NCBI RefSeq assembly: GCF_004010195.1
Contig: NC_057734.1
Span: forward strand, 15,369,242-15,424,581
Source of the DNA: Chiloscyllium plagiosum
Taxonomy: Eukaryota
Direction of reading: 5' to 3'
Length of the DNA stretch: 55,340 nucleotides
The notes beneath the pieces were generated by a model. That model was not told where the DNA came from and searched no databases. It worked only from the letters and a program-made list of their open reading frames with translations. Positions within the stretch are counted from its first letter, which is position 1. Each line of letters begins with the position of its first letter. Below, one piece after another: positions 1 through 48,790 of the stretch. The position numbers and the translations under genes are program-made.

Positions 1-325
1 GTATAAGTCTTGCTAAAATTTGCTTTCCCAAAATGCAGCACCTCGCATTTATCTGAATTAAACTCCATCTGCCACTTCTCAGCCCATTGGCCCATCTGGT
101 CCAGATCCTGTTGTAGTCTGAGGTAACCCTCTTCGCTGTCCACTACACCTCCAATTTTGGTGTCATCTGCAAACTTACTAACTGTACCTCTTATGCTTGC
201 ATCCAAATCATTTACATAAATAACAAAAAGTAGAGGGCCCAGCACCGATCCTTGTGGCACTCCACTGGTCACAGGCCTCCAGTCTGAAAAGCAACCCTCT
301 ACCACCACCCTCTGTCTTCTACCAT
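1..325 (-). mobile_element. CR1 LINE RT fragment
   Basis: Reverse strand encodes the CR1 RT segment GVPQGSVLGP...SKFADDTKIGG...WAEKWQMEFN...CEVLHFG. Confidence 0.85.
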
Positions 326-329
326 TCAT

Positions 330-750
330 GTAGAACTCTGAGCTCAAAGACTGCATGAATTCATGTAAGACTCCATTATCTCACTTTTTAGATTAGAATC
401 AATCTAAACATCATGGCATAGACCGAGAACACAGGGGGCCAACACCTTCAACATATTGTCTAGCTATCACCCATTGTTAACAGCTAACCAGAGAATACAA
501 CTTTTTAAAAAAAAGATTTTGTGATTTACACATAAAGAAATGAAACTATCACGGTATTCTAACAGATGAAAGGCTTAACAGACAATCAATTTTTCAATGT
601 ATAACTTCAGTTACATCACACTGTTAAATTTTTGCTATAAATTCTGTGGGTTAGGATTGAGCCCTCCATTACCACCTGATGAAGGAGCGACGCTCCAAAA
701 GCTAGTGTGCTTCCAATTAAACCTGTTGGACTATAACCTGGTATTGTGTG
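330..750 (+). mobile_element. Penelope-like element terminal fragment with degenerate minimal hammerhead motif (671-716)
   Basis: CTGATGA-A-GGAGC-GAC-GCTCC-(A)AAA-GC...GCTTC; the G of GAAA is mutated to A. Confidence 0.55.
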
Positions 751-765
751 ATTTTTAACCATATA

Positions 766-2500
766 CATTCAGGACACCACCTCCTTCATGATATACATTT
801 CCCTCCCCACCCCCATCTGCGTTCCACAGAGAGCAATCCATCCACAACTCCCTTGTTGGGTCCATACCCCCCCGCCCCAAGCCACCAAACCACCCTCCAC
901 ATCAGGCACCTTCCCATGCAAGAGGTGGAAAACCTGTGCCCAGACTTCCCTCTCACCTCCAACCAAGGCCCCAAAAGAACTTCTCATATCTGGCAAACAT
1001 TTTCCTACACATCCAAACACCTTATCTGCTATATCCATTGCTCTTGATGTGGTCTCCTCTACACTGAGAAGACAGGATGCCAACTCGCGGAACATTTCAG
1101 GGAACATTTCTGAGACACGCACCGCACAACCCCCTCAATCCTTGGCTGACCACTTCAATTCTCCCTTCCATTCAGCCAAGGACATGCAAGTCCTGGGCCT
1201 TCTCCACCACCAAATCCAAGCCTGGAGGAAGTCCGCCCCATCTTCTGCCTTGGGACACTTCAACCACACAGCATCAACATTGACTTCACTAGTTTCCTAA
1301 TCTCTCCTTCCTCTACCTCATCCCAGATCCAACCTTCCAACTTGGCACCATCCTCTTGAACTATCCTTCCTGTCCATCTGACCTATCCGCTCCACCCTCC
1401 CATCCAACCTGTCACTATCAGAAGGTGGATATGTGAGGGGAGGGGAATATGTATCTGTTGGTGCTTTCCTGCTGGAGGTAGTGGAAATGGTGGCTAATGA
1501 TCCTATGGATGTGGATGCTGGTGGGGATGGTAGGTGAGGACAAGGAGGATCCTATCGCTGCTTTGGGAGGGAGAAGGAGTGAGGGCTGAAATGTAGGAAA
1601 TGGGTCGAACCTGGTTGAGGGCCCTGTCAATTATGGTACTGGGTAATCCTTGGTTGAGGAAGAAGGTCGATATTTTGTAGGCGCCTGTGTCAAAGGTGGT
1701 ATCATCAGAACAGATGCGATGAAGTTCGCGGAACTTGGAGAATGGAATAGGATGCAGAGTGTGACAGTGTACAGACAAGGTAACTATGGGTGTTGGTTGG
1801 TTTGCAATGGATATGGGTGGCCAATCTATCCCAGAAATGGAAACAGAGATGTCGAAAGAAAGGAAAGATTGAGTCAGGTGGACCAGATGAAGGGGAGAGT
1901 GGGGTGGAAATTGGAAGTGAAATTGATAAACTTTTCCAATTCCGGACAAGAAGGGGAAGCAGCACTGATGATATTATCGATATGAGAGAAAGAGTTCTGG
2001 GTGAGGGCCAGCATAGGATTGGAACAAGAAATGTTCCACACACCCCACAAAGAGACAGGCATTACTGGGGCACGTGGGTAAACATGGTCATTCCTCTGTC
2101 CTGAGGAAAGTGAGAGGAGTTAAGAAAACTTGCTCAGGGTGAGGACGAGCTTACCCAGGCGGAGGGTGGTAGTGGTGGAGATGGTTTGATTCTTTTTTCC
2201 AGGAAGAAGCAGAGAGCCCTGAGACCATCTTGAACAGGCATTACTGGGGCACATGTGGGTAAACATGGTCATTCCTCTGTCCTGAGGAAAGTGAGAGGAG
2301 TTAAGAAAACTTGCTCATGGTGAGATTGAGTTTACCCAGGCGGAGGATGGTAGTGGTGGAGATGGTTTGATTCTTTTTTCCAGGAAGAAGCAGAGAGCCC
2401 TGAGACCATCTTGATCTGGGATGGATGTGTAAAGGGATTGCATATCCATGGTCAAGAGAAGGTGGATGGAGTCCGTAACTGGAAACTCCTGTAAAGTTTT
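766..2500. mobile_element. Rearranged, decayed Penelope-like retroelement: GIY-YIG part on + (766-1420), RT part on - (1421-2500)
   Basis: Minus strand: TMDMQSLYTSIPDQDG, HIDNII (YIDD-like), KPTNTHSYL. Plus strand: GTFPCK..KTC, LICYIHCS, LADHFNS. Internal ~180-bp tandem duplication 2055-2233/2234-2414. Confidence 0.8.
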
Positions 2501-2954
2501 AGAGGAATCGCGTACGTAAATGGGAAGAGACTGGACAAGGGGAGGGAAAAAAAATCGAGTTAAGGTTAGTAAGAGAAAGCAACATGACAATGAAAAGTTA
2601 GTGCTGATTAGCTGTAAACGGATTGTGATTAGGAGAGGAGTTGCCATGGACAAAAACCATTATAGGAAGGACTGCTAGTTAACTGCCAAGCTTTCCTTCA
2701 ATTTTAAACAAGCCGGTCAGAGTCTAAACTGTCAAGAAAGTAACAAGAGAACAGCTGTCACCTATTACGTTGAGTTGAAACAGGCACAGTGTATGGACAT
2801 GTTGACAGGCATCATCTGAAAGGTACTTGTGATCTGGAACTATTATGAAAAGAGTCTAAGAATAATATCCATTAGATTATCTGCAGGTCCAGAAACAAAT
2901 CTCAATTTGAATGAGTAAATGAACTGATTAACAAACTCATTATTGTCAAAGACC

Positions 2955-2960
2955 TTTATT
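2955..2960 (-). promoter_or_regulatory. Candidate polyadenylation signal (AATAAA) of OASL
   Basis: TTTATT on + strand about 830 nt downstream of the OASL stop, at the end of an AT-rich unique stretch. Confidence 0.45.
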
Positions 2961-3786
2961 TAGCAATATTACATATTCAGTCTATTGTGATTTTGCACAG
3001 TAGATTCAATAGTAACCTCCAAAAAACAGAGTGATTATTTTTTGAAAAAGGATTTAGATAGTTCTTCAAATTTCCAGATTCAAAATGATGGTCTGAATGG
3101 CTTTGCTTCAATTGTATAAATTCTATGATACAATTGACTATTGTAATACATAATACGTACTCAGCAAATAACATTCCTACCTTACTTTAATATGTAAACA
3201 AATGTAAAACATTCCAAACAGTAAGTAAATACATAATCTATAAAGGTACAAAATCATTCTAATAAACTACTGTAATTAAAAAGAACTTATTAATTCACTG
3301 CTGCAGTTGGCAACAGAATTTGTGCAATAAAAATATGCAAATGTGTGTTATTTCATTAATTTTGAGAGAAAGGCCACTTGTTGCCAGCTCCAATGTGCAA
3401 TGCAGAACAGACAGGAGGAGCAAATTATTTCCAAACTAGAGGCTGACCCCAAAAAACCTCAGGCAGTGATTGGTCACATTAACTAATCTGGAGGAGCAGT
3501 GGAAGAAATCACATTCAAATAAGAAAATTTTCCAGTCAAAGTATCATTCCCTGCAGTTGAATATATGTTTCAAAATGCACAGGGTCATCCCACTTTAAAC
3601 ATTACTTGAAGTTTCATCTCATTCTCAACATAAATTTCAGTTAAAGTTTGGTATTTTCAGATACATATAAATCAGTGAAAAGGATTAATATGTAGTATTT
3701 ATATTTACAACATGTTCCAAATAAATCCAGTTGATAAGATATATCATGAAAATGTGTTTTAAATGTTTTAATATTGCAGTTGACTT

Positions 3787-4260
3787 TCAAGATGCCTTGC
3801 CCCCACGGAGACGCAAGTTGATGTCAATGGTACAATGTTGATCAATGCCGTAGTATTCCAGCGTGTGGCTATCTTCTAGTGTTCGTGACTGAAAGGTCAG
3901 GTAATATTGGCTTGGAGAAATGCGCTCCAGATTTTGGATCTTATTTTTCAGGCTCAAAACCTTGTCAGTCGGGGACACATTAATTTCTAGGTTACATCCA
4001 TTTGGATGCCTTACAAATATCTCCATTGAGTTTGACACAAGTAGGTGGAGCTTTGCATCAAAGAATATTCCAGAATCCAATAAGGTTTTGCCACCATTCA
4101 GAATAGTTTTATTGAACATCAGGCGTTGTTGGTGAACTGGAATGTTCCAGTTTTGCTGGATTTGATTCTTGATCATTAAAATGTTGCTGTCAATGTTGGC
4201 CATCAGGGGTAATGAGGAGCCATTCAGGCTAATCACAGTGATCTCAAACTGTGCCATTGG
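3787..4260 (-). CDS. OASL: OASL terminal exon 6: two tandem ubiquitin-like domains ending LRLRGG-KAS (156-aa ORF from ATG at 4257)
   Basis: Acceptor t11-aactgttttag|CCA ATG GCA at 4261/4260 is in phase 0 with exon 5. UBL motifs IPVHQQRLMF, MEIFV, LEDSHTLEYYGI, LRLRGG. No stops or frameshifts. Confidence 0.93.
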   Translation of the reverse strand, partial: PMAQFEITVISLNGSSLPLMANIDSNILMIKNQIQQNWNIPVHQQRLMFNKTILNGGKTLLDSGIFFDAKLHLLVSNSMEIFVRHPNGCNLEINVSPTDKVLSLKNKIQNLERISPSQYYLTFQSRTLEDSHTLEYYGIDQHCTIDINLRLRGGKAS

Positions 4261-5146
4261 CTAAAACAGTTAAAAAAAAAAATTGTTTTTGCGGCTGGAA
4301 AGACAGTTGGCTGTGTTCGTTTGTTAAATACAAATACAACAATAAGTATATTTTTCAATTTTACTCCCCATCCCTCCTGATTCTTATTGTGATAATAAAT
4401 ATAACATTTTTGTCAAGCATTTTATGGTCAGTAAAGACAGAATTTTGTTCACCCCCATTTCACTAAGTCTGATCTAGTATTTACTTGATATCCCACACTC
4501 AAAATATATGGTTAGTCAGAATCTCAACAGATTCTTTGCACTTTCTCAAGTCTGCTCTATTTTTAACAAATCGGAATCTATCATTTATTCCCTCCTCTAT
4601 CCAATGCCTCACCAGCTTCCCTTCAAATGTATCTATACTATTTGCTTCAACCACCCCCATTGCAGGGAGTTCCACCTTCCCATCTAGTTAAGCTCTTCCC
4701 CAAATGAGGTAACATTGTCTTTGAATCCACTCAGTTAAAACCTGTCATTATTTTAATGATTGCTACTGCAAAATCCCCTCAGCCCTCTTTTTTCTCTTAC
4801 CAATTCTTTCCTGAAATGTGTACAAACATATTTTTATCACTATCCTTCTCAATATTTTCTTCACCTACTCCAGTGTCCTTTAGATCCTTTTTATAATATC
4901 ATGACCAGGTTGCATTCAGATTTCAAGGTCAACAATAAGTTGCCCACTTTTTGACTCCATGGCTCCAGGAATAAATCCTTGTGCTTGGTTTGTTTCCTGG
5001 CTGCTATCAATAATCTGTGGAGCCATCTCTGGTGATTGATGTAATTGCAATCCACGCTACCTGTGTTCCACTACCCCACCTAGTGTTCACTTTTAAAATG
5101 ATAAGTGACATCCCTATTATCCCTGTCAAAATGTACAGTTTTATGT

Positions 5147-5430
5147 TTAGATTACATTACTTACAGTGTGGAAACAGGCCCTTTGCCCCAACAAATCCAC
5201 ACCGTCCCGCAACCCACCCACTTACCCCTTCACTTAACACTACGGGCAATTTAGCATGGCCAATTCACCTAACCTGCACATTTTTGGACTGTGGGAGGAA
5301 ACCGGAGCACCTGGAGGAAACCCATGCAGACACGGGAAGAATGTGCAAACTCCACACAGAGAGTCACCTGAGACAGGAATTGAACCAAGGTCTCTGACGC
5401 TGTGAGGCAGCAGTGCTAACCACTGTGCCA
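5147..5430 (-). mobile_element. HE1-like tRNA-derived V-SINE
   Basis: A/B boxes (TGGCACAGTGG...GGTTCAATTCC on -), V-domain gtgtggagtttgcacattct..., tail tttccacactgtaagtaat. Confidence 0.85.
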
Positions 5431-5814
5431 TTTATCAATATGGCTTTTTGATTGTCAATGACTTGTTTCTTTGCCAAATCTGTGAAAGTCCTGCTGTGAT
5501 TTGCTACCATGCCCCTCAAAATTGACTTTGCACTGCAATCAGGTGTCATCCATAAATTGGTCATGTACAGTACTAACAGCAAAAGATCCATCACTGATTC
5601 TTGTGAAGCACGATTTCCCACCTTCTGACTCTGTAGAACACCCAGGGTATGCTTTCTGGCTTGAAGTCAAGAGAAGGAACTGTGTCATTTAACAATTCAA
5701 TCTCCAGAATTTCTACACGAAACAGTGTCCCGTGTCAATCATCTCCTAAAACTATTTACCTGGACCTTCCATGCTTGGACTCCAGAGACACATGTCAATG
5801 TACAGTTTTATGTT

Positions 5815-6094
5815 TAGATTACATTACTTACAGTGTGGAAACAGGCCCTTTGCCCCAACAAGTCCACACCGTCCCGCAACCCACCCATTTACCCCTTCAC
5901 TTAACACTACGGGCAATTTAGCATGACCAATTCACCTAACCTGCACATTTTTGGACTGTGGGAGGAAACCGGAGCACCTGGAGGAAACCCATGCAGACAC
6001 GGGAAGAATGTGCAAACTCCACACAGAGTCACCTGAGACAGGAATTGAACCAAGATCTCTGACGCTGTGAGGCAGCAGTGCTAACCACTGTGCC
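5815..6094 (-). mobile_element. HE1-like V-SINE (duplicate of 5147-5430)
   Basis: Part of the tandem duplication unit. Confidence 0.85.
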
Positions 6095-6424
6095 ATTTAT
6101 CAATATGGCTTTTTGATTGTCAATGACTTGTTTCTTTGCCAAATCTGTGAAAGTCCTGCTGTGATTTGCTACCATGCCCCTCAAAATTGACTTTGCACTG
6201 CAATCAGGTGTCATCCATAAATTGGTCATGTACAGTACTAACAGCAAAAGGTCCATCACTGATTCTTTTGAAGCACGACTTCCCACCTTCTGACTCTGTA
6301 GAACACCCAGGGTATGCTTTCTGGCTTGAAGTCAAGAGAAGGAACTGTGTCATTTAACAATTCAATCTCCAGAATTTCTACACCAAACAGTGTCCCATGT
6401 CAATCATCTCCTAAAACTATTTAC

Positions 6425-6557
6425 CTGGACCTTCCATGCTTGGACTCCAGAGACACATCGAGACCTGAGCCATTTCTTGGCCTCCTTGTCCATCACGTAC
6501 CATCCATCAGATGAAGCCACATTATTAGTTGGATCGGCCGGGTCAAGGATTATTGGT
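6425..6557 (-). CDS. OASL: OASL exon 5 (RPIILDPADPTNNVASSDGWYVMDKEAKKWLRSRCVSGVQAWKVQ)
   Basis: Acceptor ttttattttgcag|, donor CAG|gtaaat; OAS signature RPxILDPADPT; 133 nt, phase 2 to 0. Confidence 0.95.
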
Positions 6558-7361
6558 CTGCAAAATAAAACCACATCCAATAATTGTTATAAACCATAGA
6601 CCTGAGTTTCTGAGCAAAGTAACACTGAGTTTAATGGTGATTATTGTTATTAGTGTGGAAAGAATTCAGCAATCTGTGATGAAGTAGTGATGCCCCATGA
6701 GTTATGGATACCAGAATTTGCGATCCTTGGCCAAAGCTTCGTTGTTAAGCTCTGCAGGTATTTCAAGGACTTTTTACTTTTGCATCTTATTGAGGAATTA
6801 AACTCACAGCAGGAACTCAGGCATTTGCTTGTCTCAAAGCAAGTTTCATGTGGTAAGCAAGAGACTGATACAGAAATTCATCAAGCAGTTCACTTCAAAA
6901 AACATTATCTTCCTTCTGCCTTCCTTCATTTCTGAGGAAACTAGCACATTTCTTCTCACTCTGTATAATGCTTCGAAATCTCATGCCAGATTGCTTTAAA
7001 TCCAGCCATTGATGAATTCAAAGCATTCGGAGTCCAGATCCTTTACTTCACCTTTATCAGTGACTTTATTTGGGCCGTAATGTGCTTTCAATCCCAATCA
7101 CTGGATCCAGACAAGATTCAGTACAGACAACAGAGAAAGGTCTTTCTAGATGGATGGTATAATCTTTCTAATCTGACTGTGTTGGTAATTATATTGGTTA
7201 ACACTTTTATAACATTTGAATATGTTAAGTATCCCACGTTGTTCATGGGGTGGAGTAGACACTGACCATTACTATAATGTGAGGGTTTGAACAATGGTCT
7301 CCAGGACACTAATCAAAATGGGATTAAAAAAAGTGACGATGTTTATGGAGAGCTCTATAAT

Positions 7362-7638
7362 GATTAGATTCCCTACAGCGTGGAAACAGGCCATTCAGCC
7401 CATCCAAACTGGCCCTCCAAAGAGTAACCCACCCAGACCCACTTCCCTCTGACTAATGCAATTTAGCATGGCCAATTCACCTGGCCTGCAGGAGGAAACC
7501 AGAGCACCCGGAGGAAAACCACACAGACGTGGGGAGAACGTGCAAACTCCACACAGATAGTCACCCGAGGCTGGAATTGAACCTGGGACCCTGATGCTGT
7601 GAGTTAGCAGTGCTAACCCCTGAGCCACTATGCTGCCC
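7362..7638 (-). mobile_element. HE1-like V-SINE
   Basis: Same head, V-domain and tail motifs, internally deleted. Confidence 0.8.
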
Positions 7639-7764
7639 TGAATATGGTACCAATCTGATGTAAAGTTCTGAAGAAGGATCACAAAACATTACCTCTGTTT
7701 TCTATCCAGAGATGCATGTCCCTTACTTGACACCCAAAGACAGGTATTAGTGGTCAATTAGATC

Positions 7765-8180
7765 GCTAAATGTCCCGAAATCAGCTTCCTTACGTGAGAG
7801 TGCTCTTAAAGAATTGGAACAGTTCTAACTGGTTTCACTTAAAAGATATTTTAAGCTTTTACCTGTTGCCACAGAGTTTCTTACGTAGAAAATTTACAAT
7901 GTCTTGATTGTTGACATTGTAACGGTCAGTCCAGTAAATATGCAGATTTTGATAGTTGCAGATCAGCTCAAGGATTGTCCAAAAACCTTCAGCAGTGACA
8001 AATCTCTCGGTCCCGTTGCCTTGCTCCCAGGCGTAGTCAGCAGCTCCACCGCATACTTAGCAGGCAAACTCTGTGGCAACAGGTAAAAGCTTAAAATATC
8101 TTTTAACTGAAACCAGTTAGAACTGTTCCAATTCTTTAAGAGCACTCTTAAGTAAGGAAGCTGATTTCGGGACATTTAGC
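7765..8180. repeat. 115-bp inverted repeat (arms 7765-7879 and 8066-8180) flanking OASL exon 4
   Basis: gctaaatgtcccgaaatcagc...cctgttgccacagagttt versus aaactctgtggcaacagg...gctgatttcgggacatttagc; 3 mismatches by eye. Confidence 0.95.
7863..8070 (-). pseudogene. OASL: OASL exon 4 remnant (SLPAKYAVELL/frameshift/YAWEQGNGTERFVTAEGFWTILELICNYQNLHIYWTDRYNVNNQDIVNFLRKKLCGN)
   Basis: OAS motif LPPxYALELLTxYAWE is split over two frames (CTG CTG AC^TAC GCC TGG; about 4 nt missing at 8036/8035). Donor AG|gtaaaag at 7863/7862. The 5' end is replaced by an inverted repeat arm. Confidence 0.9.
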
Positions 8181-8460
8181 TCCAAAGAGTATCCCACCCA
8201 AGCCCATTCATCTACTCTATTCTACATTTACACGTAACTAATTAACACATCCCTGAACACTATGGGCAATTTAGCATGGCCAATTCACCTAACCTGCACA
8301 TCTTTAGACTGTGGAAGGAAACCAGAGCGCCCGGAGGAAACATGTAGACACAGGGAGAATGTGCAGACTCCGCACAGACAGTCGCCTGAGGCTGGAATCA
8401 AAACCGGGTGCCTGGTGCTGTGAGGCAGCAGTGCCAACCACTGAACCACTGTGCTGCCCA
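8181..8460 (-). mobile_element. HE1-like V-SINE, tail truncated at the inverted-repeat breakpoint
   Basis: Head and V-domain present; terminal tail (tggaaacaggccc on +) missing exactly at 8180/8181. Confidence 0.8.
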
Positions 8461-9003
8461 AATATGTGCAGATTAAAGGACTGGCCTCCACCCCTGATCT
8501 GTAATCAATTTGAATACAGCTCCTCCATACAATATGGCATCAGGGAATTTTTTTCATGACTACACTAGAGAATCAAGATCTGATTCTGAGATGTATTTAA
8601 CCTAAGCTGAAGGTGTACAGGATCTCCCCTTTCTCTAAAGTCATTCCAGCAACTTCGATTGAAGCCAGTTTCTTGAAGGAGGAGGTTAAATTGTTCAACT
8701 GTTAAAAATATGGGTACTTCTTTTATATGGCTTCAGACAGCAACCAGATCTTTTATTGCACATTTAGCAGAGGCTGGAGGAGCTCTGAGAGAAACCGCTC
8801 ATAGGAGCACTCCTTCAAAGATTCTGCCAATCCCCTTCTATGCAAACAAGCATTCTAGGCAAGTGTTCACAGGTTTTTAATAAGGATGAAGCCCGAATTC
8901 ATCAGTCATATTTGTCAATGATATAACTATAGAAACACCATCTTTTTATATGTGGCGCTACAATCTCCCTACATTCTTCAAGCCATGTTCCCCAGTCACT
9001 CAC

Positions 9004-9179
9004 CTCTTTGTACCAATATTTTAGCAGGCGAATCAAGTCTTTAAGTTTTGCATTACGTTGCTTCACAAAATTCCTCTGAAGCTCAGTAAAACATGCAGAA
9101 AATTCCCCACATGGATCACCATTTTCGCTTACGAATTTTATTAGCCTGAGATGGGCTGTATTTCCATTTGGTGATCCTT
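9004..9179 (-). CDS. OASL: OASL exon 3 ([59 protein letters not shown])
   Basis: Acceptor tttcctacag|, donor GAG|gtgagt; carries the OAS signature GEFSxCFTELQR...KLKxLIRLxKxWY; 176 nt, phase 1 to 0. Confidence 0.95.
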
Positions 9180-9514
9180 CTGTAGGAAATTAAACATTTG
9201 ATGAGCAACAGAAACTGTGGCATTTGTGGTCAGATATAAGCTAGAGATTGANNNNNNNNNNNNNNNNNNNNNNNNNNNNNNNNNNNNNNNNNNNNNNNNN
9301 NNNNNAAAAAAAATGCAATTTAAGGATGATTGCCACTACTGAGATGTTTGGGCCTAGATAAATATATAAAAGCTAATTGCTCCATCGCCTTAACTAGAAA
9401 CAGGACATGTTATGAAACAATGTGAATAATAGTCAATCTCCTTGACTAGCAGAGGTTTGTGAAAGAACTAAAATTATACTGGAGCTTAAAAATTACACTA
9501 ACATAAATTCTTAC

Positions 9515-9815
9515 CCAGTGCATCAAAGGCTGGCAAAATATCAAATTCCACACTCTTTGAGTATTTCTTCTTCGGTTTTAGAGCAAAGCTCAATGATTTT
9601 GGTAGGACGTTGCTGTTCGATACAAGAGTTATGTTGATGTCACTAATCTTATTGGCAAAGCTTGGTGCACACTCTGTCAATACTTGTTGAATTCCTTCAA
9701 GAATTTCCTGCCTCTTGTTTCTCAGCTCCTCAAAACTCTGGAAACAGTTGAGGAAGACAACAAGATCTGCATCTGAACCATTCCTTAAAGCCGTTCCTTT
9801 GCCTGAAGACCCTCC
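9515..9815 (-). CDS. OASL: OASL exon 2: P-loop GGSSGKGT, SDADLVVFL and EFDILPAFDAL (three catalytic Asp present)
   Basis: Acceptor ttctcgtctgcag|GGA at 9816/9815, donor CTG G|gtaag at 9515/9514; 301 nt, open frame (within ORF 9498..9854). Confidence 0.95.
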
Positions 9816-13580: not shown

Positions 13581-13665
13581 TTTGACGGCTCTGATAACTT
13601 TGATCCCAGGTTATTTAATAAAACATCGGTTCTTTAAAAATTCACAGATTCTGTGTATTGCATTT
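13581..13665 (-). pseudogene. OASL: OASL exon 1, 3' part (NAIHRICEFLKNRCFIK*PGIKVIRAVK) with premature stop
   Basis: Resembles the OAS1 exon 1 motif (AIDxICxFLKExCF...VxKVVK). Ends AAA|GTAAGT (donor at 13580), phase 0 into GGSSGKGT of exon 2. In-frame TAA at 13613-13611. Truncated upstream by Ns. Confidence 0.85.
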
Positions 13666-15772
13666 NNNNNNNNNNNNNNNNNNNNNNNNNNNNNNNNNNN
13701 NNNNNNNNNNNNNNNNNNNNNNNNNNNNNNNNNNNNNNNNNNNNNNNNNNNNNNNNNNNNNNNNNNNNNNNNNNNNNNNNNNNNNNNNNNNNNNNNNNNN
13801 NNNNNNNNNNNNNNNNNNNNNNNNNNNNNNNNNNNNNNNNNNNNNNNNNNNNNNNNNNNNNNNNNNNNNNNNNNNNNNNNNNNNNNNNNNNNNNNNNNNN
13901 NNNNNNNNNNNNNNNNNNNNNNNNNNNNNNNNNNNNNNNNNNNNNNNNNNNNNNNNNNNNNNNNNNNNNNNNNNNNNNNNNNNNNNNNNNNNNNNNNNNN
14001 NNNNNNNNNNNNNNNNNNNNNNNNNNNNNNNNNNNNNNNNNNNNNNNNNNNNNNNNNNNNNNNNNNNNNNNNNNNNNNNNNNNNNNNNNNNNNNNNNNNN
14101 NNNNNNNNNNNNNNNNNNNNNNNNNNNNNNNNNNNNNNNNNNNNNNNNNNNNNNNNNNNNNNNNNAAAATCATGGCACTGAGGCCTTTGTGCAAGTCACC
14201 TGCTTACATTCTCAGACAAGAAAAGGTCCTGGTACAATACACTTTTTCAAAAAACTGTAAGGTAATTAACAAAAATGCATTTGATTCTGATCATTGAATT
14301 ACAATACTTTGATTCGAATCAAGACTGCACCCATGGGTGAATACTCCATTCTGTTAACTTAGAAGGTTTTTCAAAAGACTTAGATTCATGTCAACCTGGA
14401 CCCTGAGTGGTGCACAATTCAAAACTGGCTTTTCACTTGATACCAATTCATCTTCTCTTTCACAGATGTCATAGGATAGCTGATGTGCCAATTCCAAAAA
14501 TGTTACACTGTGCAGGATGTGCCATGCCAAACACTTATTAAAAAATTGCATAATCATCAGAATGATTATCTTTCTGGTTCGCTTTAAAATTACAAGATAA
14601 TTTACAATTAATTTATTTTGTATTAATCATTGGCTCAACATTGGAATGCTTTAATCTGAGTGCTTACAGTTTTACAATAACAGGATTTCAAGGCCTACAT
14701 ATTACATCTCCCATAATTGCCAGTATGATTGGGAAGTAATAAAGATCTAAACATGTGTTTATATCTATCTGAATTTTCTGTGTCGTTCTCTCCATTCCAT
14801 TTTGGATCTACCTTTAAACCGAGTTTATGATGACGTACACAAGCCAAGTGTTGATGAAAGGATCAGCTATTAATGAGACATCTATAAACAATTTCCAAGA
14901 GTGAGTACAGCCAAGATCACCAATCTATTGTCTAATTATAATCATATTAATTATATAATACTAGTCGATCTCATTTAGCCTTTTACATATTTTAAGAGAA
15001 TCTGGACAGGATTTTTAGTTTTGATGTGATTGGGAATTGAGATGATTCAATCTGCTCTCACACAAACAATTAGGCCAATTAAGCCCTTATTCAAAGTCAG
15101 TCAACTCTAACTCCACTGGTCAGAGATGTCAATGATGGTGATGGCAGTGACTTTATAGGTATTACAACCAAATCAAGGACGTGCATTTTTTATGGGGAGG
15201 AATCCTGCTATTCTGTAGTGGCAGAGACCTGGAATGGTGAAATAGGATGAGATTGATACAGAGCAGAGCACATGAGAAGGGCAAGGTAAAGGCTGAGAAT
15301 GGAACATAGGGAAAGGGAAGATGAGTAACATACAGGAAAATATCAATTTAATCTATCAATATTAAAGAACAAACCATATCAGCAAATTTGATTAAATGTA
15401 AAAATGTTAATTAAATAAATAAACTAAAGTAAGGAAGTGATTACATGCAGATAGTTGGTCACAGCTACAGCATATGGGAGCTTGTAGATAAATGTTTCAA
15501 TTAGTCAGTGAGTATCTGCATCTCATGTGTTCTGAAGCCAGCATGATGTTATCTCTGGACAAGTCAGATTCCTGACTTTTAGCCTTTGTCCTTGCAGAAC
15601 AGATAGAGAGTTCAATATCTTTAAATTATGGCTTGTGGACATATTGATTTAGTAAATATTTTTGAATCCATTATAACAAATATTTAGAGACCCAGGCGAG
15701 TAGTCTGAAAGCATGGGTTTGAATCCCACCATGACTAGTACTGAAATTTGAATTTGATGACGGGATCTAAAT

Positions 15773-36066: not shown

Positions 36067-36540
36067 ATGATACTGCAGGTGAAGTTTATGACCGGTGACA
36101 TTGTCCCACTTGAGATCAATCCTTCCATTCAAGTATCAGCTCTCAAGACGTTGATATATGAGAAGACCAAGATACCTGTTTACCAACAGCGTCTGGTGAT
36201 ACAAAATGGGAACACTCAAGAGCTGAAGGACAACAAGAGACTGTCTGACTACTGTGTCCCTCCCAGTAACACTGTCATGCTGATCGTCAAGAATGAGGAG
36301 CGCATGCAGATATTCCTGCAGAATGACAAGGGAAAACTTTCTACATACGATGTTCGTCCCTCTCAGTCTGTTGAGGAGTTTAAAGCACAAGTCCAGCGAC
36401 AGGAACGTGTCCCAATCAATCAGCAGCGCCTGATGTACGATGGGAAACAGCTGGAGGATGGTCGGTTACTCGCTGACTACAATATTCAGCCAGAGAGCAC
36501 CATCTTCCTCTTGCTGCGTTTGCGGGGTGGCACATTGTGA
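36067..36540 (+). CDS. ISG15: ISG15-like di-ubiquitin-like protein, 157 aa, C-terminus LRLRGG-TL (copy B, complete gene)
   Basis: Two UBL domains with the LRLRGG conjugation motif plus a 2-aa extension. Single coding exon behind acceptor tcatttctcaacag| (36054/36055). ISRE-rich promoter and non-coding first exon upstream, the layout known for fish ISG15. Confidence 0.88.
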
Positions 36541-48316: not shown

Positions 48317-48790
48317 ATGATACTGCAGGTGAAGTTTATGACCGGTGACATTGTCCCACTTGAGATCAATCCTTCCATTCAAGTATCAGCTCTCAAGACG
48401 TTGATATATGAGAAGACCAAGATACCTGTTTACCAACAGCGTCTGGTGATACAAAATGGGAACACTCAAGAGCTGAAGGACAACAAGAGACTGTCTGACT
48501 ACTGTGTCCCTCCCAGTAACACTGTCATGCTGATCGTCAAGAATGAGGAGCGCATGCAGATATTCCTGCAGAATGACAAGGGAAAACTTTCTACATACGA
48601 TGTTCGTCCCTCTCAGTCTGTTGAGGAGTTTAAAGCACAAGTCCAGCGACAGGAACGTGTCCCAATCAATCAGCAGCGCCTGATGTACGATGGGAAACAG
48701 CTGGAGGATGGTCGGTTACTCGCTGACTACAATATTCAGCCAGAGAGCACCATCTTCCTCTTGCTGCGTTTGCGGGGTGGCACATTGTGA
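48317..48790 (+). CDS. ISG15: ISG15-like protein, copy C (CDS identical to copy B; promoter and exon 1 deleted)
   Basis: Same 157-aa translation; acceptor at 48304/48305. Upstream junction 47836/47837 joins promoter-distal sequence directly to the intronic SINE. Confidence 0.85.

Follow-up and report, generated by a model that had tools for sequence, protein, structure and literature searches.

A disabled OAS gene with a fused di-ubiquitin-like LRLRGG tail in the shark Chiloscyllium plagiosum, its intact relatives and the likely ancestral status of the tail

The stretch of Chiloscyllium plagiosum DNA analyzed here (the window; 55,340 nucleotides, contig NC_057734.1, positions 15,369,242 to 15,424,581) carries on its minus strand a six-exon gene for a 2'-5'-oligoadenylate (2-5A) synthetase (OAS) fused to a tandem, or di-, ubiquitin-like (UBL) tail that ends in LRLRGG. 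A preliminary description of this DNA had singled out the range 3787-9815, which spans exons 2-6. This copy is disabled by three lesions and therefore cannot encode the enzyme, so the reading proposed here concerns its intact relatives: the intact sisters would make 2-5A on double-stranded RNA (dsRNA), would be clipped after LRLRGG and would be conjugated through the exposed end, an arrangement probably ancestral to jawed vertebrates and lost in therians. We place the probability of this reading at roughly 0.6.

In the enzyme half of the window gene, exon 2 (9515-9815, minus strand) contains the P-loop GGSSGKGT and, in SDADLV and FDILP, three catalytic aspartates. This exon matches PF01909 and aligns without gaps to pig OAS1 (PDB 1px5/4rwn, E 6e-16) and to human OAS1 and OAS2; its match to human OASL is far weaker (E 2.4e-5). 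The three aspartates align with D74, D76 and D147 of pig OAS1 (numbering as in PMC6307210), and the alignment confirms the catalytic motifs named in the preliminary description. The OAS1_C domain (PF10421) begins in exon 3 (9004-9179, minus strand, E 3.5e-16), and exons 3-5 match it. Exon 5 (6425-6557, minus strand; ILDPADP ... KVQ), placed by its domain match and by an exon 4-exon 5 joint in sequencing run X14, ends at a phase-0 donor. Exon 6 (3787-4260, minus strand) is preceded by a phase-0 AG acceptor at 4260 and encodes the tandem ubiquitin-like domains in one phase-0 exon, an open frame of 157 amino acids with two Pfam ubiquitin stretches (E 1.2e-28). The LRLRGG codons lie at 3799-3816 on the minus strand of the sequence and are followed by KAS and a TGA stop; the fused di-UBL ending LRLRGG-KAS is as first described. 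The window gene has the nucleotidyltransferase (NTase, PF01909) plus OAS1_C (PF10421) unit and the C-terminal tandem UBL of OASL and OASa.U.

Two intact relatives are paralogue b and the protein record P0412. The cluster on the window's contig (C25) contains three OAS genes, the window copy and paralogues b and c. Paralogue b (about C25:15350283-15365567), about 12 kb from the window copy, has six GT-AG exons (1,503 nucleotides, 500 amino acids), 0 internal stops and the end LRLRGG-KTS; paralogue c encodes an OAS with one UBL and ends in CSLM. A further copy of the gene, on contig C93721, has a stop in exon 2. P0412 is 474 amino acids long and is encoded on a 2,455-nucleotide ENA contig that we infer to be an assembled transcript, because its length is short against the genomic span. 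It passes through all exon joints to LRLRGGKAS, its tail is 95% identical to the window tail, and it contains KVQ/PMAQ, the junction of exon 5 to 4260. The splicing of exon 5 to 4260, on which the preliminary description depended, thus holds for this type of gene, on a relative rather than on the window copy. In run X14 (RNA by guess) a 279-nucleotide contig of depth 106 joins 7863 to 6557 with exon 4 intact and differs from the window at 12 letters. Close relatives of the window gene, P0002 and P0412, group with Callorhinchus P0011 in the enzyme tree (Shimodaira-Hasegawa-like approximate likelihood ratio test, SH-aLRT, 100), and the window gene's tail groups with Callorhinchus in the tail tree (100/99).

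Conservation of the terminus was assessed in 22 chondrichthyan records, from sharks, rays and chimaera, which together gave 26 di-UBL units; P0014, P0034, P0043, P0044 and P0269 were excluded for want of a second UBL. LRLRGG was exact in 22 of the 26 units and 24 ended in GG, so that orthologues do retain the motif. The motif is the top 6-residue window (0.96 versus a mean of 0.73 over 157 columns). Conservation after GG falls to 0.42, 0.58 and 0.31 in the next three columns, and the extensions past GG vary from 0 to 21 residues.

Outside the cartilaginous fish the tail was followed among the matches listed, a thin sampling (the best 120 of 814 and the best 150 of 26,073) to which the following counts refer. 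GG tails were present in both units of Protopterus and in Latimeria, Gopherus, Alligator, Rhinatrema (single UBL) and Candoia (PRLRGG). Ambystoma tails read LRLKGG and MRLRGG, with MRLREG in a second record. All 16 bird records ended in RGG, 12 of them in exact LRLRGG; four shorebird records (P0108, P0112, P0113, P0117) read LPLRGG or LLLRGG, which alters the Arg equivalent to ubiquitin R72. A record of the lizard Rhineura had one UBL and no GG. Mammalian OASL1/OASL2 share the architecture and the tail clade of the shark protein, and differ in that none of the four therians sampled (Canis, Dipodomys, Molossus, Dromiciops) had a GG tail. In a tree of 40 di-UBLs, from which tortoise, Mobula and one polyubiquitin row were excluded and which had no mammalian ISG15, the tails of shark, lungfish, axolotl, alligator, birds and mammals share one side (89/86, unstarred), and those of the four mammals form a single starred clade. 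This is consistent with one therian loss, the simplest reading because the outgroups also end in GG. As the tail is found in sharks, lungfish, amphibians, reptiles and birds and in 0/4 therians, it is probably an old feature that mammals lost rather than one that birds invented, and both its distribution and the tail tree agree with the earlier suggestion that the motif predates any avian compensation for a missing ISG15.

Two free di-UBL, ISG15-like genes lie 26 and 38 kb from exon 2, on the strand opposite the OAS gene. Copy 1 (36067-36540, plus strand) encodes 157 amino acids and ends LRLRGG-TL before its stop; copy 2 (48317-48790, plus strand) is identical in coding DNA (0/474 differences). 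A search of the genome, whose count is a lower bound, brought up no further free di-UBL gene of this kind. Both sit inside a 1-kb duplicate that is 99.6% identical, the mark either of duplication in the very recent past or of a haplotype left uncollapsed; for C. punctatum there are three free di-UBL records. OAS-diUBL and free di-UBL occur on contigs of equal size in 7/7 other sharks that were comparable (Hemiscyllium, Mustelus, two Scyliorhinus, Cetorhinus, Heptranchias and Carcharodon; C. punctatum was not comparable). The PDB scores of the free di-UBL are about equal for the chicken OASL tail (94.1 bits) and ISG15 (91.8), and it clusters with the Candoia tail, which favours ISG15 (94.6 versus 61.3). 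Agrin, which we take to be the neighbour of human ISG15, is on contig C34, away from the free di-UBL genes. These genes are likely, not proven, to be ISG15. The statement that the genome also has ISG15 stands insofar as there are two free LRLRGG di-UBL genes, putative orthologues of mammalian ISG15.

The observed starting point of the proposed pathway is a six-exon OAS-diUBL gene with three lesions here, an intact 500-amino-acid paralogue nearby and intact spliced products of this type of gene. The intact copies would synthesize 2-5A, because Callorhinchus OASa drives RNase L in yeast. A host protease would then trim the 3-21 residues after GG, as with ubiquitin and ISG15 precursors, and E1 and E2 enzymes would activate the GG and link the enzyme chiefly to itself, which would cluster the sensor. 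This last step is modeled on chicken OASL, which forms 90 and 120 kDa conjugates (PMC8764230), and by that analogy covalent conjugation of shark OASL is plausible. The term 'ISGylatable' used for the shark protein is wrong, because the enzyme would itself be the modifier.

Which E1 might act on the tail can be approached through the surface that separates ISG15 from ubiquitin. ISG15 residues W123/T125/P130/F149/N151 correspond to ubiquitin R42/I44/Q49/H68/V70; W123/T125/P130/N151 keep ISG15 off UBA1, and swapping the patch residues lets UBA1 charge ISG15 (PMC10693564, PMC10409785). At ubiquitin positions 42/44/49/70 the shark OASL tails have Y (26/26), T (24/26), P (15/26) and N (24/26), and the window copy carries T at the 49-equivalent position instead of P. 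The free di-UBLs have R (13/13), M or V (12/13), Q (13/13) and no N, and so lack the W123/T125/P130/N151 patch. The patch is unexpectedly inverted, with the OASL tail of ISG15 type and the shark ISG15-like gene ubiquitin-like. Because the tail has this polar patch, its E1 would likely be other than canonical UBA1. E1 matches in the genome were UBA6 on contig C2 and a UBA1-like gene on C76533; in addition, C18 carries diverged UBA1-like exons in two places, and its adenylation exon is UBA1-type (92 bits versus 49 for UBA7). The two C18 places (11566900-11619800 and 43637231-43655041) hold complementary SCCH-domain parts, 32 Mb apart on opposite strands; they are possibly one mis-scaffolded gene, a candidate shark counterpart of UBA7 with a UBA1-type surface, and this diverged gene is our candidate E1. 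UBA7 and UBE2L6, assumed in the preliminary description, may be the wrong enzymes, because no UBA7-type E1 was found in the genome (a lower bound).

The lesions of the window copy are a stop in exon 1, a lost exon-4 acceptor and a 4-nucleotide frameshift. The exon 1 remnant (13581-13664, minus strand; tblastn with P0002 and P0412, 93-96% identity; GT donor) contains an in-frame TAA at 13613-13611, and its 5' part is hidden in an N gap at 13666-14165. The exon 4 remnant (7863-8066, minus strand) has lost its natural acceptor and about 13 N-terminal codons and has a 4-nucleotide deletion near 8033. In the C93721 copy this place is taken by roughly 4 kb of intron 3 and by exon 4's 5' end; the window gene has instead a 115-bp inverted copy (8066-8180, unstranded) of 7765-7879 (97% identity), recognized by self-BLAST, by the C93721 comparison and by a junction contig in run X1. 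A 664-bp tandem duplication in intron 5 (5130-6458, unstranded; 5130-5793 and 5797-6458, 98%) takes in the last 11 codons of exon 5 and is present as a single copy in C93721. Function through a cryptic acceptor at 8070 was considered and rejected: this AG leads to a stop at 7965 because 4 bases are missing near 8033, and the stop in exon 1 is separate. With three lesions and no intact frame, the view of this copy as an OAS enzyme with a competent tail has to be given up. The locus is either a pseudogene or a null allele, although a local error of assembly keeps some probability. The copy is one of the ordinary losses of an immune cluster that evolves by birth and death, and a defunct member of a family already known. 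Elsewhere in the window, a 181-bp tandem duplicate (96%) lies within a degenerate retrotransposon-like stretch at 2055-2414.

It is improbable that the lesions are errors of assembly and the locus really an intact gene. The assembly is fragmented, with N gaps, the 664-bp tandem duplicate and unplaced sister contigs. Reads from 4 of 24 listed runs were placed on 7645-8245 only; there, the 4-nucleotide deletion and four exon-4 substitutions are absent from contigs of X1, X6 and X14, and in run X6 a window-like 3' half of exon 4 runs on into the intact form. Error would nevertheless have to account for three separate lesions, and for a 59-nucleotide contig of DNA run X1 that crosses the inversion junction and, with the 115-nucleotide arm, shows zero differences at a depth of about 11, although it extends for just 30 and 29 letters to either side, short of the 31-letter threshold, and the source sample may be X1 itself. 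A stop is likewise present in the C93721 copy, which suits a cluster with birth-and-death evolution. The locus may also be a null allele in this animal, with intact alleles in others. None of the runs with the window stretch is recorded as RNA, and raw RNA run X21 gave 5 reads in about 2% of the run. As for ancestry, the GG tail could, instead of descending without a break, have been acquired several times, through exon capture or through gene conversion, from the ISG15-like gene next to it. The free di-UBL genes do adjoin the OAS cluster (same-size contigs in the seven comparable sharks), OAS tail and free di-UBL are both single exons behind an in-frame AG, an independent UBL gain in squamates is suspected in PMC10400998, and the Latimeria and Candoia OAS tails cluster with free di-UBLs (100/98). 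Because of that clustering, which hints at capture from the neighbour or at annotation fusion, we set these two aside as independent evidence for the OASL tail. Repeated capture is still improbable, given that the shark-to-mammal tails lie on the same side of the tree, with an identity of only about 34% to the free di-UBL of the shark, that a single clade of the OASL tails, Latimeria among them, was not rejected by an approximately unbiased (AU) test (p 0.066), and that the Latimeria and Candoia models may themselves be fusions.

We consider it rather unlikely that the tail was kept for non-covalent use or protease recognition only, without meaningful conjugation, whether by binding USP18, RIG-I or E1, by supporting folding or as a decoy for deconjugating proteases. 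According to PMC8764230, both enzyme activity and RIG-I activity require the UBLs in birds, human OASL acts by non-covalent ubiquitin mimicry, and the chicken conjugates, formed under overexpression, are mostly with itself, other partners being about 100-fold rarer; the lack of a matching UBA7-type E1 in our lower-bound searches points the same way. A tail without conjugation is harder to reconcile with conservation that ends exactly at GG, before extensions of 0 to 21 residues, which is the pattern of a processed modifier, and with the loss of the motif in mammalian OASL, the known non-covalent user. Several other points weigh against conjugation and its proposed history. OASL conjugation has been shown in chicken only (PMC8764230), the conjugate section of that paper reports no GG-mutant control, and GG remnants on OASL lysines could derive from ubiquitin. 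QYYLTF is the second best window (0.955), nearly as conserved as LRLRGG, so that conservation by itself is no proof of conjugation. The 26 units share ancestry, include within-species duplicates and are not independent. The sample contains no monotreme. The adenylation surface of the C18 candidate, NLALPFYAFSEP, is UBA1-type and a poor fit to the polar patch, and family searches of low sensitivity (a lower bound) found no UBA7-type E1. RNase L was likewise not found in the assembly by a low-sensitivity, lower-bound search; the PF06479 search gave 3 matches on 2 contigs, and the one examined was IRE1. Finally, the 4-nucleotide deletion is absent from the contigs of all 4 runs checked (contigs drop rare variants), and the exon-1 stop is known from the assembly alone, reads having covered only 7645-8245.

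Other features of the cluster were noted. Intron 1 of paralogue b (C25:~15363190-15363360) holds a degenerate second OAS exon-1 copy (L013) with a frameshift and a stop. The locus of paralogue c (C25 ~15314000-15330300; L019, L020, L010) ends in the CaaX-like CSLM, and one-UBL OAS elsewhere have similar ends: CILL, CILM or CILI in other sharks, CYIM in Latimeria, CSIL, CTIL or CTLL in caecilians and CVCL in Rhineura (records P0001, P0005, P0010, P0013, P0014, P0246-P0248, P0269, P0287, P0368, P0391). Prenylation of OAS, as with p46 of human OAS1, may go back to early jawed vertebrates; no title or abstract on CaaX ends of early-vertebrate OAS was found in the literature searched. A distant OAS1_C match on a different chromosome (C2:53496548-53503895) is perhaps an OASb-type gene. 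A P2X receptor gene (C25:15454040-15496405) starts about 36 kb past the second ISG15-like gene. Synteny with what we take to be the human OASL-P2RX7/4 neighbourhood was dropped, as the first exon of this gene matches P2X2 best, and we claim only a common chromosome of the OAS cluster with P2X and Deltex genes.

Parts of this picture are already known. The NTase-OAS1_C-UBL architecture is ancestral for jawed vertebrates, and Callorhinchus milii OASa, a member of the OASa.U group, works with RNase L in yeast (PMC10400998), so that an active OAS-UBL of cartilaginous fish is published, as is chicken OASL conjugation (PMC8764230). The window gene has the same architecture as this group; the window copy differs in being broken. 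The main text of PMC10400998 has 0 matches for ISG15, LRLRGG, glycine or conjugat-. Chicken OASL (PDB 7SBI; E 6e-20 against the shark tail) shares with the shark protein the active-site aspartates, the di-UBL and LRLRGG with a short pro-extension. The settings differ in that birds are without ISG15 whereas the shark genome has two free ISG15-like genes, and position 42 is R or Q and position 70 L in the bird tails sampled, as against Y and N in shark tails. The best full-length PDB matches of the shark OASL tail are to ISG15 (E 7e-21), which has in common with it the di-UBL fold, LRLRGG, a pro-form and the aromatic/T/P/N patch; unlike ISG15, the shark tail is fused to a 345-amino-acid enzyme. 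Type II CBASS (antiphage systems whose signaling is based on cyclic oligonucleotides; Cap2/Cap3) likewise use a nucleotide second-messenger synthase as a covalent modifier. Their cGAS/DncV-like nucleotidyltransferases (CD-NTases) are conjugated through a bare C-terminal Gly or Ala, with no ubiquitin fold and by an operon-encoded E1-E2 (PMC10097602), whereas the shark gene is a eukaryotic multi-exon gene with a UBL tail. The parallel drawn earlier to CBASS is sound as a functional analogy and does not extend to homology of the conjugation systems.

PMC8764230, in which human OASL is described as inactive, frames the GG motif as avian versus mammalian and floats an ISG15-like role for bird OASL. 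We found no report of the tail outside birds, of its ancestry or of OAS-ISG15 linkage in the literature searched (few subscription papers and no supplements), and within that literature the ancestry of the tail seems new; OASL tails of reptiles or fish may appear among the supplements to PMC10400998 and PMC6307210. That sharks, lungfish, amphibians and reptiles all have the tail, in the present genome beside ISG15-like genes, reverses the question to why it was lost in mammals, and raises that of which E1 serves a conjugatable dsRNA sensor. Tentatively, and with less confidence than we attach to the main reading, covalent OASLylation may be as old as ISGylation: a free di-UBL (ISG15) and an OAS fused to a sister di-UBL exon would have been neighbours at a single locus in the first jawed vertebrates, and OASL may be the dedicated client of a second UBA1-family E1. 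If so, a sensor that is also a modifier would have persisted from sharks to birds and been lost in therians, and in sharks it would be the OASL tail, not the free di-UBL, whose polar patch steers a modifier away from UBA1.

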